From Candidatus Hermodarchaeota archaeon (GTDB lineage Archaea > Asgardarchaeota > Heimdallarchaeia > Hodarchaeales > Hodarchaeaceae), in assembly GCA_048886185.1 (NCBI GenBank), contig JBHLKY010000004.1, forward strand, positions 202,576-234,575: 32,000 nucleotides of DNA, read 5' to 3'. The notes beneath the pieces are model-generated. The model did not search any database, was not told the origin of the DNA, and saw only the letters and a program-made list of their open reading frames with translations. This document shows, in pieces, positions 22,317 through 25,994 of the stretch. The first letter of the stretch is position 1; each line of letters opens with the position of its first letter. The translations under genes and the position numbers were made by a program.

Positions 22317-22345
22317 GAATCTTGGGTTATGCCTTACCCAGATTT
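22317..22345. terminator. Imperfect hairpin between the convergent DinB and longin genes
   Basis: aatct(t)gggt-tatgcctt-acccagatt inverted repeat with one bulge, near T-rich runs. Confidence 0.3.
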
Positions 22346-22781
22346 AATAAATGCTTGAAATCACTTTTCCTTCTATCAGAGGATGCTTTAATTCAACTAA
22401 ACCACTAGTTTGAAGGATATTGTCCAGAGATGATCTAAAATCTTTAAATAAAGAAGGTTCAACAATTTTCTGGTTGAGATACTCTTGATACTGTTGAATA
22501 AATTTGCTATAAATTCTCCTCATAGTTGTAAATAATTTTCGTTTGGAGATTTGTTTCTCAGATGTTACTAGAGCGAGAACTATTGTTTCTCTCGATTCAT
22601 AAAAGATGGAATGGTGTTCCATACGAATTTCATTAATTTTCTCACCAATCATATTCTTGGCAAAACTAGAAATAGCTGCCAAGAATCCACTAAAAAGGTC
22701 AACATCATCGGATTCATCCCCATAAGAGCGTGAGAGTAAGCATAGTCCTGATTCATGAATTATGAAAACTTTCCGAATCAT
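22344..22781 (-). CDS. Longin-like (profilin/longin fold) small protein of Asgard type
   Basis: MIRKVFIIHESGLCLLSRSY..DVDLFSGFLAAISSFAKNM..KINEIRME..IFYE..LALVT..KFIQQY follows the typical Asgard longin pattern. Confidence 0.72.
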   Translation of the reverse strand: MIRKVFIIHESGLCLLSRSYGDESDDVDLFSGFLAAISSFAKNMIGEKINEIRMEHHSIFYESRETIVLALVTSEKQISKRKLFTTMRRIYSKFIQQYQEYLNQKIVEPSLFKDFRSSLDNILQTSGLVELKHPLIEGKVISSIY

Positions 22782-23104
22782 AAAGGGGCACTTTCCTTAT
22801 ACGAGAAGGGTGACTTAAACATCAATTCATTTGAAAATTTTAATCCTTCTGTCCCATAAATTTTAAGAATGGCTTCATTATCATTGATAAGTTCAAGGTA
22901 AAATTGAGTGTTGGTCAGTTCGTAAAGAGCGACAAGAAATGTTTTAAGAATTTCCTGAAACTGATAAATCGTCTGTGAGAAAAAACAATGCAATCCATCC
23001 TCTCGAATCTCATAATCCTGAAAAAAAGTAGGGGAAAATAGCGCTATCATGAGAGCAGCGTTTAGCTGAGTGTCTGGAGTCTGGAGGATAGTTGTTTTTA
23101 CCAT
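22778..23104 (-). CDS. Hypothetical protein, translationally coupled to the longin gene
   Basis: 108-aa ORF whose stop overlaps the longin start (ATGA at 22778-22781). No recognisable family. Confidence 0.65.
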   Translation of the reverse strand: MVKTTILQTPDTQLNAALMIALFSPTFFQDYEIREDGLHCFFSQTIYQFQEILKTFLVALYELTNTQFYLELINDNEAILKIYGTEGLKFSNELMFKSPFSYKESAPL

Positions 23105-23124
23105 TTTTTTTACCTTTGTTATGG

Positions 23125-23147
23125 AAAAAAAGGGGATATCATCCCCT
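23125..23147 (-). terminator. Hairpin plus T7 run immediately after the small peptide gene
   Basis: The minus strand reads AGGGGAT-GAT-ATCCCCT then TTTTTT: a perfect 7-bp stem starting 8 nt after the TAA. Confidence 0.6.
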
Positions 23148-23155
23148 ATATATTG

Positions 23156-23308
23156 TTAGGGGGTAGGGGGTGTTGTTGTTGGGTCAGTTAAGCCTGTTGA
23201 TATCCCTAAAAGGAAGATAGCTAAGACAATGATTAAAGGAACCATTTTAAGGATGATTACTTTAATTGATCTATGATTTTCCAGTTTACTACGGAGTCTA
23301 TTTAACAT
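23156..23308 (-). CDS. Unannotated 50-aa small protein: signal-peptide/TM-like body with Thr/Pro-rich C-terminal tail
   Basis: Translation MLNRLRSKLENHRSIKVIILKMVPLIIVLAIFLLGISTGLTDPTTTPPTP*. GAGGAG SD 7 nt upstream of the ATG and a terminator-like hairpin right after the stop. Confidence 0.75.
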   Translation of the reverse strand: MLNRLRSKLENHRSIKVIILKMVPLIIVLAIFLLGISTGLTDPTTTPPTP

Positions 23309-23315
23309 TGATTTT

Positions 23316-23321
23316 CTCCTC
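23316..23321 (-). promoter_or_regulatory. Shine-Dalgarno site of the small peptide gene
   Basis: GAGGAG on the minus strand (plus ctcctc), followed by a 7-nt spacer to the ATG at 23308. Confidence 0.65.
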
Positions 23322-23456
23322 TATTGCTTGGGAAAAGAAAACAACACAAGAACCTATATTTAGAAATATTAATGAAGTAAATAGAAAGAAAAAAAATCAT
23401 AAAATGATGCCATTTTTGCTATGAGATTTCTTATTAAGATATAGGGAAGTCTGATC

Positions 23457-24899
23457 ATGAAGTTATTAGAGGACGAACATTCTGATTTGATTAGTCTAAA
23501 ACTGCCTGTGAACTTTATCGATGATTTTATAGAATATTGGGAGAATATCAAAAGAATTGTGAAACCTGAAGGGAAACCTCCCATTTCGTGGAAAAAATGG
23601 AATTTAATATCTAAAAAGTACTTAGAAATTTTAACAATTCCATTTTATAACAAATGGGAGCATTTAAGGATAATGTCACAGATTAAAGCATATATCAAGG
23701 CTTTCGCCTCAATCACACTTCATTTTAAGGGAGGAGCTATCTTACTACCTAAGCAGATAATTCTTTATGAAATAATGAGACCTGATAACACTCTAATTTC
23801 AAGTTTAAAAGTGAATCCTTCGAAAAAGTCATTTGAAAGGATTTTAGATTCTCTCTGCGTTGATCTAAACATTCGATTGATAAAAAGTGATGTTCAAATC
23901 ATTCAAAAACTGACACAGCCTGGATTCTCAAAATCATTAGATCGGTTTCCTAAATTAAAAGAATTGGCATATGGCATAAGACGAGATGTCAGAACAGTAT
24001 CGAGTCGTTTAGATTATTTAATTCAACTCCGAGTATTAAGTTTGATTTACTTAGTTGATATGGCTCGGATTGGATATCAAACAGTTCTATTATTTCATAA
24101 CATTGGAAGATCACAAATCCCGAAAGAATTTCATCCCTACATTGTGATGCTTTTTCCTTTACCTGATGGTAGCTTTCCAACAATCATGCAATATCCATTC
24201 AAAGATATTCGAATCTATAAAAAACTCTTAGATTTCTTTAATCCAGAAGATAAATTGGTTTTGAAGAACCAGTATCGTGGGTGGAATTTTGCAGGATTGA
24301 AGCAAAATCAAGACGAAAGATGGAAATTATTACCCCCAATTCTCCAAGATGGTGGAGGTTGGAATATGAGATTAATAATTGGAGAAACAGGTATCGAATT
24401 TAACCTAGATCCACATTACGATCCCTTCTTATTATCTCCTAGACAAGGACAACTTCTTGGTTTAATTCATAAACTTTCCACAATGGAGGAGGAGTTTCTT
24501 TCCAAACAGCTAGGCGTGGGTCGGGCTTATATCACACAAGATGCAAAGGAGCTTCTGAGAAATCAAGTCATTTTTCGTTTTCCTATATTTTCAAACCTTG
24601 GTCTTGGAGCGTGGATATACTTTTACATTCAAGGTATAACATCTAGAGGTCTAATGAATGTTCTTGAGCATTTGAAATTTTTTCCATATGTAAACATATT
24701 TTATAATCGAAATTCAGGATCACTAGTGGGCCGAGTTAATGTCCCACCTGCATGGACAAATGTATTCATTTATCGCTTAACATCTCTCCCTGAAAGTTAT
24801 CCAGGGTGTTCTTTTTCATATTATATAGGCCCTGATGCCTATGCTCCTTGGGCTTTTGATATTTTAGGAACATTCAACTGGACAAACCTTCCTCAATAG
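23457..24899 (+). CDS. Tandem Lrp/AsnC-like winged-helix transcriptional regulator with an extra N-terminal domain
   Basis: HTH 1: DVQIIQKL..PKLKELAYGIRRDVRTVSSRLDYL..VL..VDMARIGY. HTH 2: LSPRQGQLLGLI..EEFLSKQLGVGRAYITQDAKELLRNQVI..SNLGL. Each is followed by a RAM-like alpha/beta region. Confidence 0.7.
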   Translation: MKLLEDEHSDLISLKLPVNFIDDFIEYWENIKRIVKPEGKPPISWKKWNLISKKYLEILTIPFYNKWEHLRIMSQIKAYIKAFASITLHFKGGAILLPKQIILYEIMRPDNTLISSLKVNPSKKSFERILDSLCVDLNIRLIKSDVQIIQKLTQPGFSKSLDRFPKLKELAYGIRRDVRTVSSRLDYLIQLRVLSLIYLVDMARIGYQTVLLFHNIGRSQIPKEFHPYIVMLFPLPDGSFPTIMQYPFKDIRIYKKLLDFFNPEDKLVLKNQYRGWNFAGLKQNQDERWKLLPPILQDGGGWNMRLIIGETGIEFNLDPHYDPFLLSPRQGQLLGLIHKLSTMEEEFLSKQLGVGRAYITQDAKELLRNQVIFRFPIFSNLGLGAWIYFYIQGITSRGLMNVLEHLKFFPYVNIFYNRNSGSLVGRVNVPPAWTNVFIYRLTSLPESYPGCSFSYYIGPDAYAPWAFDILGTFNWTNLPQ

Positions 24900-25049: not shown

Positions 25050-25994
25050 ATGGATATGATCAACGAAGAAATAATAGGAATATTGTTCGCTCTTCTTGCT
25101 GCAATATGTTGGGGCCTTGGAGCGTCATTGTATAAAGCGGTGATAAAATCTGAGCACTCACTTTTTCTAACTATTGTCATTCGAGGTTCAATTGCTGTTC
25201 CTTTCATTGCTTTTGTAACCTTTTTTGTTAATGGTTTTACTTCTCTTGTTATCTTACTTTCTCCCGAATTACTACCAATTCTTTTTTTTTCAAGCATTTT
25301 TGTAGGATTTGGTGATTTATGGTTTTTTGGTTCGCTTCAACGTATTGATATTACTAAAGCCATGCCTGTTGCTTCGATGTACCCTCTATTCACAGCAATT
25401 CTACTAGTAATCTTTGGACTAGAGATGATTTCTTATTTTGTTATTATTGGAATAATTATATTAATAGCTGGTCTAGGTTTCTTAGCGCAAGAATACAATT
25501 CTCAAACAACCTCGGTAACACGAGAAGATCTAAAAGCGGGATTAGCGCTAGCAGTTTTAGCTGCAATTTTTTGGAGCTTAGGAATATACACCTTGAGGAT
25601 AATTCTGGATTTCCCAGAGGTTGATGTTTATTCGCTTGCAACAGTTCGGTTCGGACTTTTATCTTTCCTTTTTGTCATTTTATGGAGTATAAACACAGTT
25701 TATCGGTACCAAAAGGGGATTGAAGATCCAGCATCCCTCTCTCAGATGTCTAAAAAGATTAGTGTTGTATTAGGTCTAGGTGGTATATTTTCTTGGGGAA
25801 TTGGTGCTATAAGTTTTTTTTCATCAATTGAATTGATTGGAGCAGCTCGGGCTACACCAATATCCTCTGTTAATCCTCTTATCTCAGTAATTATTGGAAT
25901 TTTCTTTCTTAAGGAAAAGCTGTCTCGGTTTCAAGCCATTGGTATTCTATTGATCATTTTTGGATCGATTTTCATATCAATCCAACAGATTTAG
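25050..25994 (+). CDS. DMT/EamA family transporter
   Basis: Two EamA repeats, ~10 TM segments; ALLAAICWG, IGAARATPISSVNPLISVIIGIFFLKEK. Confidence 0.9.
   Translation: MDMINEEIIGILFALLAAICWGLGASLYKAVIKSEHSLFLTIVIRGSIAVPFIAFVTFFVNGFTSLVILLSPELLPILFFSSIFVGFGDLWFFGSLQRIDITKAMPVASMYPLFTAILLVIFGLEMISYFVIIGIIILIAGLGFLAQEYNSQTTSVTREDLKAGLALAVLAAIFWSLGIYTLRIILDFPEVDVYSLATVRFGLLSFLFVILWSINTVYRYQKGIEDPASLSQMSKKISVVLGLGGIFSWGIGAISFFSSIELIGAARATPISSVNPLISVIIGIFFLKEKLSRFQAIGILLIIFGSIFISIQQI

Follow-up and report, generated by a model that had tools for sequence, protein, structure and literature searches.

A putative small membrane or secretory protein encoded beside a fused tandem Lrp-fold protein in a three-gene cassette of Hodarchaeales

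The PEP gene and its setting

We analysed a stretch of 32,000 nucleotides (the window) from the genome of a Candidatus Hermodarchaeota archaeon (Hodarchaeales; contig JBHLKY010000004.1, positions 202,576 to 234,575), in which a short open reading frame (ORF), here called PEP, lies back to back with the gene for a protein of 480 amino acids (aa), here called REG. An original prediction made from the DNA letters had proposed the two as a candidate pair of a secreted peptide and an Lrp-like regulator sensing it, and every sequence element that it listed is present in the window. PEP (23156..23308, minus strand) encodes 50 aa and is preceded, 7 nt 5' of its ATG, by a Shine-Dalgarno (SD)-like GAGGAG (plus-strand CTCCTC; 23316..23321, minus strand). 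Its translation begins with a 21-aa basic N-region of net charge +5, continues with an LK-x-x-P motif (here L-K-M-V-P) and a hydrophobic core of about 16 aa, and ends with a small-residue stretch, I-S-T-G, and the tail LTDPTTTPPTP. A divergent intergenic region of 148 bp (23309..23456), as had been claimed, separates PEP from REG (23457..24899, plus strand). On the other side the PEP stop is followed after 51 nt by the start of o108 (22778..23104, minus strand), a gene of 108 aa that lies directly downstream of PEP and belongs to no known family.

Short and without family annotation, PEP might be no gene at all but an open frame that arose by chance in an AT-rich spacer. We examined it by family alignment, a selection test and a genome-wide profile search. 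In six independent close pairs the pooled proportion of synonymous differences (pS) was 0.42 against a nonsynonymous proportion (pN) of 0.185 (Fisher p 5.5e-12). SD sites of the GGAGG or GGTG type stand 7-9 nt before the start in most relatives, the architecture is kept in 48 distinct relatives, and the ORF co-occurs strictly with REG, as described below. A PEP profile built without the sequences of this genome was run against its 19,274 ORFs of 35-95 aa; the top three were exactly those beside the three regulator paralogues (E 3e-15, 1e-14 and 6e-9), and the fourth-ranked had an E of 0.018. The comparative evidence from selection, SD sites, architecture and co-occurrence refutes the chance-frame explanation, to which we leave practically no probability, and indicates that PEP is a real gene under purifying selection. 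The predicted ORF and its GAGGAG site are therefore backed as a gene by selection, recurrence and profile specificity.

A search of public proteins returned 23 relatives, all from Heimdall or Hodarchaeales assemblies, all unnamed or annotated as 'hypothetical protein' and none with a Pfam family; PEP of the window itself has no match in Pfam, NCBIfam or PADLOC. The ORF had been described as hidden. It is indeed small and easily overlooked, yet several homologues already stand as hypothetical proteins in public metagenome-assembled genomes, and the gene is easily missed by annotators rather than always missed. Four close orthologues (at loci L008, L009, L010 and L011 of our survey) start with TTG behind a strong GGAGGA or GGAGGT, and gene callers tuned to ATG may skip them.

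The terminator-like hairpin that had been assigned to PEP was also found (23124..23147, minus strand). It begins 8 nt after the PEP stop and consists of a GC-rich stem of 7 bp with a 3-nt loop (arms AGGGGAT/ATCCCCT at 23131-23147), followed by T7 on the minus strand. A run of T7-T10 stands 3' of PEP in five of the seven closest loci, that is in the window and in four of the six closest orthologues. This predicted element probably permits partial read-through into o108. A perfect 9-nt inverted repeat, GGGATATCA/TGATATCCC (23133-23141 with 23198-23206, 56 nt apart), connects one arm of the hairpin with a site within the PEP coding sequence, and its pairing would compete with the terminator-like hairpin. 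CCCCTA/TAGGGG provides a further alternative pairing.

PEP could also be mainly a cis-acting leader ORF, in which pausing of the ribosome at C-terminal proline codons near the hairpin and T-run would set how far transcription or translation runs on into o108. Many PEPs do carry proline runs of up to six or seven residues at their very end, and the hairpin with its T7 so close to the stop and the two alternative pairings would suit this mechanism. However, selection covers the whole protein including the N-region and the core, the tail in the window has no proline run longer than PP, and the hairpin is not conserved in L008, L013 and L016-L018. Moreover several cassettes have no hairpin, their PEP and o108 genes overlapping or being separated by only 30-35 nt. 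We regard a leader function as most improbable.

Linkage of PEP, o108 and REG

The source genome (4.84 Mb, 96% complete) holds three REG paralogues, each of which has a PEP-type ORF of 50-53 aa located 135-148 bp upstream on the opposite strand. In a wider survey REG loci were retrieved from 83 genomes of the class, and homologues with enough flanking DNA were taken as testable. The homologues tested for PEP are 23-69% identical to REG of the window. A divergent ORF of 44-56 aa, counted from the likely start, and of the same layout was present upstream of 25 of the 28 that had enough upstream DNA. In two of the three exceptions (L024 and L031) PEP lies just downstream of REG instead, and PEP is also present at one further locus, L027, so that in total 28 of 29 testable REG homologues have it within about 0.5 kb; L021 is the sole testable locus without it. 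The recurrence that the original prediction had asked for was thus observed. REG homologues carry an adjacent, mostly divergent small ORF with an SD site, a basic N-region and a hydrophobic core, whose tail is variable and rich in D, P, T and G across the lineage, and the ORF is conserved beside them under purifying selection. Peptide and regulator also co-vary: their distances correlate (Mantel r 0.63; 0 of 2000 permutations), a correlation that does not show contact between the proteins. What it does show is that the genes of the cassette were duplicated together and have diverged in step.

The third member of this cassette, o108, was absent from the prediction. It follows PEP directly in ten of ten orthologous loci, where a helicase and a DinB gene are likewise conserved and the position of o108 could therefore be plain synteny. 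At more divergent loci, whose REGs are about 27-33% identical to that of the window, an o108 homologue again lies 30-50 nt after PEP (L020, L022, L023, L029, L030, L033 and L034). In L024 and L031 the PEP-o108 pair is found 3' of REG, the two genes having moved together, and in L024 they overlap by 7 nt. Weak o108-like genes were detected near most of the most distant copies checked (REG identity 23-26%; E 1e-3 to 2e-5, one at 0.056), where they sit either after PEP or after REG; the same check found none at L002, L025 and L049. Because the paralogues keep the pair even when it is placed downstream of REG, PEP-o108 is the tightest unit, to which REG is attached in variable orientation. Taken together, the gene neighbourhoods show PEP, o108 and REG to be a cassette of three genes, to which a longin-like gene is often added.

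Full-length REG is present in all 20 genomes of the genus, and weaker part-length matches occur in both genomes of the sister family. The search also covered 278 further Asgard genomes, in which no full-length REG was found and single Lrp modules alone match. Distant matches of the REG profile in a library of 1.8 billion proteins are labelled Heimdall or Hodarchaeales, with one deposited as Thorarchaeota. A genome carries 1 to 11 copies, which frequently lie in tandem, and the tandem arrays hold 4 PEP genes for 11 REG genes. The arrays L047 (G062 C14), L048 (G052 C234) and L049 (G052 C126) have three or four REG paralogues per 11-17 kb, and only some members of each array have a PEP gene of their own. 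A mobile element or defence island was considered and rejected: PADLOC gave no matches and the synteny of the window's copy is stable across the genus.

Possible roles of REG and PEP

The AlphaFold (AF2) model of REG (pLDDT 88) consists of a helical N-terminal domain (about residues 1-135), with invariant aromatic residues F20, F24 and W28, followed by two copies of a winged helix-turn-helix (wHTH) with a beta-alpha-beta-beta-alpha-beta unit (about 140-275 and 325-460). The wHTH-then-RAM feature of Lrp/AsnC proteins is thus present twice. In a Foldseek search of the PDB the best match was the fused tandem-Lrp protein NirDL (E 4e-8; TM-scores 0.35 and 0.50; rmsd 13 A), after which single Lrp/AsnC regulators match each half of REG (probability 1.0, about 147 aa). 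A profile of 18 family members compared with the PDB matched the archaeal Lrp PH0140 over 327-418 (E 1.6e-5), many Lrp, AsnC and MarR chains, and weakly FL11 over 136-260. Neighbours of REG in the Atlas are archaeal proteins of 365-717 aa, mostly about 365-490 aa, that carry HTH_24/HTH_AsnC. No match above cut-off was obtained in Pfam or NCBIfam (HVO_A0114 appears weakly in Pfam with E 0.024, below the cut-off), and PADLOC gave nothing for REG. Fold and profile thereby uphold the tandem Lrp-like protein that had been proposed: REG is modelled as a fused tandem Lrp/AsnC fold with an extra N-terminal domain. Like FL11, LrpA and PH0140 it has a wHTH and a RAM domain per half and is divergent from its presumed target, and it has the fused tandem Lrp-fold arrangement in common with the NirDL/AhbAB siroheme decarboxylases. 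Unlike either group it bears about 135 additional N-terminal residues that form a conserved domain, it stays below the Pfam thresholds in sequence, and its full-length forms were found in Hodarchaeales only, in 1-11 copies per genome.

An alignment of seven orthologous PEP/REG spacers showed two conserved AT-rich blocks, at about 23359-23384 and 23412-23429, and an inverted repeat, TATTTAGAAAT/ATTTCTTATTA, joins the two. These blocks are candidate promoter or operator elements.

The match to NirDL raises the question of whether REG is a transcription factor at all. It could instead be a structural or enzymatic tandem-Lrp-fold protein in a membrane complex with o108 and PEP, which might perhaps be tied to the longin and Arf/Rag-like GTPase genes of some cassettes. 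An enzyme as best PDB match, the extra N-terminal domain with its invariant aromatic residues, the longin-like gene that follows o108 here and in several cassettes, and the GTPase genes of L050 would all be in accordance with such a role. On the other hand the TM-scores to NirDL are modest at an rmsd of 13 A, and each half of REG is matched by DNA-binding single Lrps. Haem-pathway genes were not seen among the adjacent genes examined (beside REG of the window these are EamA, o108, the longin-like gene, DinB and the helicase), the family is multi-copy, and autoregulated transcription factors typically have such a divergent arrangement with a conserved spacer. The GTPase genes are moreover absent from the window's cassette and from most others. 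A non-regulatory REG is in our view improbable.

For PEP, family figures refer to 48 distinct members and an alignment of 24. The N-region is 20 aa long (median) and carries a net charge of +4, against -1 on the C-side. Strictly hydrophobic residues form a core of 15 aa (median), behind which most members have S/T/A-x-G and then a tail rich in P, G, S and T. Across the family the length and net charge of the N-region are maintained, as are its motifs (R-x-R-L, K-P-x-K, L-K-x-x-P), with no near-invariant column. The core, the single hydrophobic segment of the protein, ends 11-20 residues before the stop, in agreement with the definition of a tail-anchored protein (one such segment no more than about 30 residues from the C-terminus, behind a cytoplasmic N-terminus), and retention in the membrane is predicted. 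With S/T/A at -3 and G at -1 in most of the 48 members, PEP also has the layout of a Sec class I signal, whose h-region measures 7-15 aa and for which cleavage is a prediction only. The long conserved N-region and the coupling to o108 would nevertheless suit a mere export signal poorly.

The reading we favour, at a probability of about one half, is that PEP is a small N-in/C-out membrane or secretory protein, encoded in an operon with o108 and under the control of the divergent fused-Lrp protein through the spacer blocks. PEP would enter the membrane with its basic N-region in the cytoplasm and its short, acidic Pro/Gly-rich tail outside. It would be the first gene of a PEP-o108 operon that continues here into the longin-like gene. 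REG would most likely bind the conserved AT-rich blocks of the 148-bp spacer and so control both the PEP operon and itself, with its fused RAM domains sensing a small ligand, and PEP, a partner or sensor held in the membrane by a signal anchor or tail anchor, would work there together with o108. We infer in this model the binding of DNA by REG, the co-transcription of PEP and o108, the topology of PEP and the contact among the three proteins.

Several points weigh against it. PEP, o108 and REG are known here from sequence and models; DNA binding by REG would follow from its fold, and NirDL, the best structural match, is an enzyme (siroheme decarboxylase) and not a regulator. The core of PEP is short, a K, R or Q stands 6 residues before the Gly in some members, and the small residues after the core fit the -3/-1 site of a signal peptidase, so that a stable anchor would be no better match to this layout than a signal peptide that is cleaved off. 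The T-run after PEP could end transcription before o108. Finally, synteny within the genus can overstate functional linkage, and it is the paralogue evidence that carries the argument.

A cleaved PEP would be the starting point of the signalling proposed in the original prediction on the model of the bacterial RRNPP systems. PEP would be exported via Sec and cut after small-x-Gly, and the tail peptide would be re-imported by Opp-type transporters and bound by REG; the released peptide would be Pro-rich and 11-17 aa long, with the form [ILVM]-A/T-D-P-...-P-P in the window's group. Much of the data would fit. The n-h-c layout with small -3/-1 residues before a conserved Gly is found family-wide, and the charged or polar residue at -6 cuts the hydrophobic span of some members to about 13 aa. 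The tails are not the same from one paralogue group to the next, and peptide and regulator diverge in step; PEP adjoins a ligand-binding-type regulator in 28 of 29 cases, and the T-run after it would permit an abundant short transcript. The genome also has 33 matches to the OppA family (PF00496), corresponding to more than 20 binding-protein genes and thus to a capacity for peptide import, which is a precondition only. This OppA expansion includes a tandem array of about six genes (G000 C2:75778-87840) in addition to about 20 other places.

Other features speak against a released signal. At 20 aa the conserved basic N-region greatly exceeds the length that is usual for Sec signals, the gene that accompanies PEP most faithfully is o108, whose product is of cytoplasmic type, and not REG, and the tandem arrays hold 11 REG genes for 4 PEP genes. 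Tails are of low complexity and rich in P, G, S and A in all groups. Among close orthologues the tail does not vary more than the remainder of PEP (between the window and L008, for example, it is identical at 8 of 11 positions and the N-region at 14 of 21), which gives no support for diversifying 'pheromone' selection, though it is compatible with such selection. We also know of no Lrp-type RAM domain that binds an oligopeptide. Overall we find this signalling route rather unlikely. Adjacency, co-divergence and the tandem Lrp fold of the proposed peptide-signalling pair stand, but the conservation of the N-region, the linkage to o108 and the ratio of 4 PEP to 11 REG fit a pure precursor poorly. 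Predictions of a REG+PEP complex with both partners given as alignments returned 0.01, 0.35 and 0.02 and give no verdict either way. An extension of the idea, in which archaea signal from cell to cell with peptides on a fused Lrp receptor, the paralogous cassettes serve as separate 'channels' and o108 acts as a processing or relay factor, we consider unlikely.

Membership of the RRNPP(A) group proper can be rejected, since the receptor has no TPR repeats: REG is composed of a helical N-terminal domain and two wHTH+RAM units, and none of its structure or profile matches contains TPRs. The likeness lies in gene layout only. As in the RRNPP(A) systems of Bacillota and phages (Rap/Phr, NprR/NprX, PlcR/PapR, PrgX, Rgg/SHP, AimR/AimP), a cytoplasmic regulator is encoded next to a small ORF (about 50 aa) whose N-terminus resembles a signal sequence and whose C-terminal tail is short and variable, and the pair duplicates and diverges together. 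Here, in contrast, the receptor would be a tandem wHTH+RAM protein, the basic N-region of 20 aa is conserved, o108 is added as a third gene and the host is an archaeon, while secretion and sensing are hypothetical.

The favoured reading of PEP as a membrane partner has parallels of its own. In PspB/PspC with PspA-PspF, and in membrane anti-sigma factors, a short single-span protein with a cytoplasmic N-terminus is likewise found with a regulator and a small cytoplasmic partner; PEP is unrelated to them in sequence and fold, and contact with REG or o108 is hypothetical here. The tail-anchored archaeal Sec-beta resembles PEP (about 50 aa) in having a cytoplasmic basic N-part and a hydrophobic segment 10-20 residues from the C-terminus. 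PEP differs by the absence of homology, by its shorter core (median 15 aa) with signal-peptidase-like small residues behind it, and by the Pro-rich tail.

Further interpretations of PEP were tried and rejected. For Tat export there is no twin-arginine motif of the form S/T-R-R-x-F-L-K (KR, KK and TR variants occur, with RR in one paralogue), and TatC was not found in this 96%-complete genome, in which the controls were positive. A class III (type IV pilin-like) signal, with [K/R]-[G/A] immediately ahead of the hydrophobic stretch as its prepilin peptidase site, does not fit the pre-core L-K-[MIL]-[VIL]-P, which has no G or A at -1. Genes for modifying enzymes, as expected for a precursor of a ribosomally synthesised and post-translationally modified peptide (RiPP), were not seen in any cassette examined. 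A force-sensing arrest peptide of the SecM/MifM type is unlikely: with only 11-20 residues between it and the stop, the hydrophobic segment would not yet have left the ribosome tunnel when translation terminates.

The cassette is a lineage-restricted variant of the theme of a regulator with an adjacent small peptide or membrane protein. Three uncharacterised genes make it up, it occurs in every searched genome of the genus, and its expansion has brought the regulator to a copy number of up to 11. Recent phylogenies place Hodarchaeales nearer to eukaryotes than any other archaea, yet the means by which they sense their environment are poorly known. If PEP is a membrane partner, the cassette would couple a regulator of Lrp type to the membrane in a new manner; to our knowledge no Lrp has been paired with a small membrane peptide. 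If PEP is a signal, we know of no peptide pheromone system described previously in archaea, and a literature search found none either. The same search found no description of the PEP/o108/REG module, in line with the earlier remark that no Asgard example was known. For annotators the result is an easily missed small gene family, and for experimenters a compact module.

Neighbouring genes and divergent cassettes

The structure model of o108 (pLDDT 81) has an alpha-beta-beta-alpha-beta-beta order and no significant fold match (best Foldseek E 0.019; VIA Z 5.0 to the ArgR C-domain; Atlas TM <=0.50), and nothing was found for it in Pfam, NCBIfam, PADLOC or other sequence profiles. Language-model (Atlas) features gave 0.88 for a LAGLIDADG-like protein, below the mark of 0.9 and with no support from sequence profiles. 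Weak WhiA-N and E-DreI rows (Foldseek/VIA), likewise below significance, point the same way, and we treat this as a lead only. In the o108 alignment a nearly invariant Asp ends helix 1.

Downstream of o108 lies the gene of a longin-like protein of 145 aa (22344..22781, minus strand; Pfam Longin E 5e-4, below the cut-off), which also matches Fuz_longin_1 weakly, again below that cut-off. At its start the gene overlaps the end of o108 by 4 nt, and the two are probably translationally coupled because of this overlap. A longin-like gene follows o108 in four of the ten orthologous loci and in L022 and L023. On the other side, the EamA transporter that had been noted after REG was confirmed by its Pfam match (EamA or DMT family; 25050..25994, plus strand; E 2e-30). 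It follows REG in the four closest orthologues only and paralogues have other neighbours: the gene is local synteny and not part of the paralogous cassettes.

Some distant cassettes are built differently. At L050 (1-2874; contig of P0075) REG lies divergently from a 51-aa PEP, a 123-aa gene, a 295-aa Arf-like GTPase and a 465-aa Arf/Gtr1_RagA-like protein, PEP through the Arf/Gtr1_RagA-like gene being all on one strand; this layout hints at a link of the cassette to small-GTPase systems. L052 (845-2387 and 4604-5819) contains twice, beside REG paralogues, a three-gene unit of a PEP-like ORF of 44-45 aa with no basic N-region, a protein of about 130 aa and then one of about 116-131 aa, and looks like a more derived form of the cassette. 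The most distant group (L046:3832-4215, L035:512-988) shares a gene of about 127-158 aa with the motif ...DRALLLLSFKDT...REGIVYVP..., and because of this shared gene the most distant cassettes may be larger than three genes.

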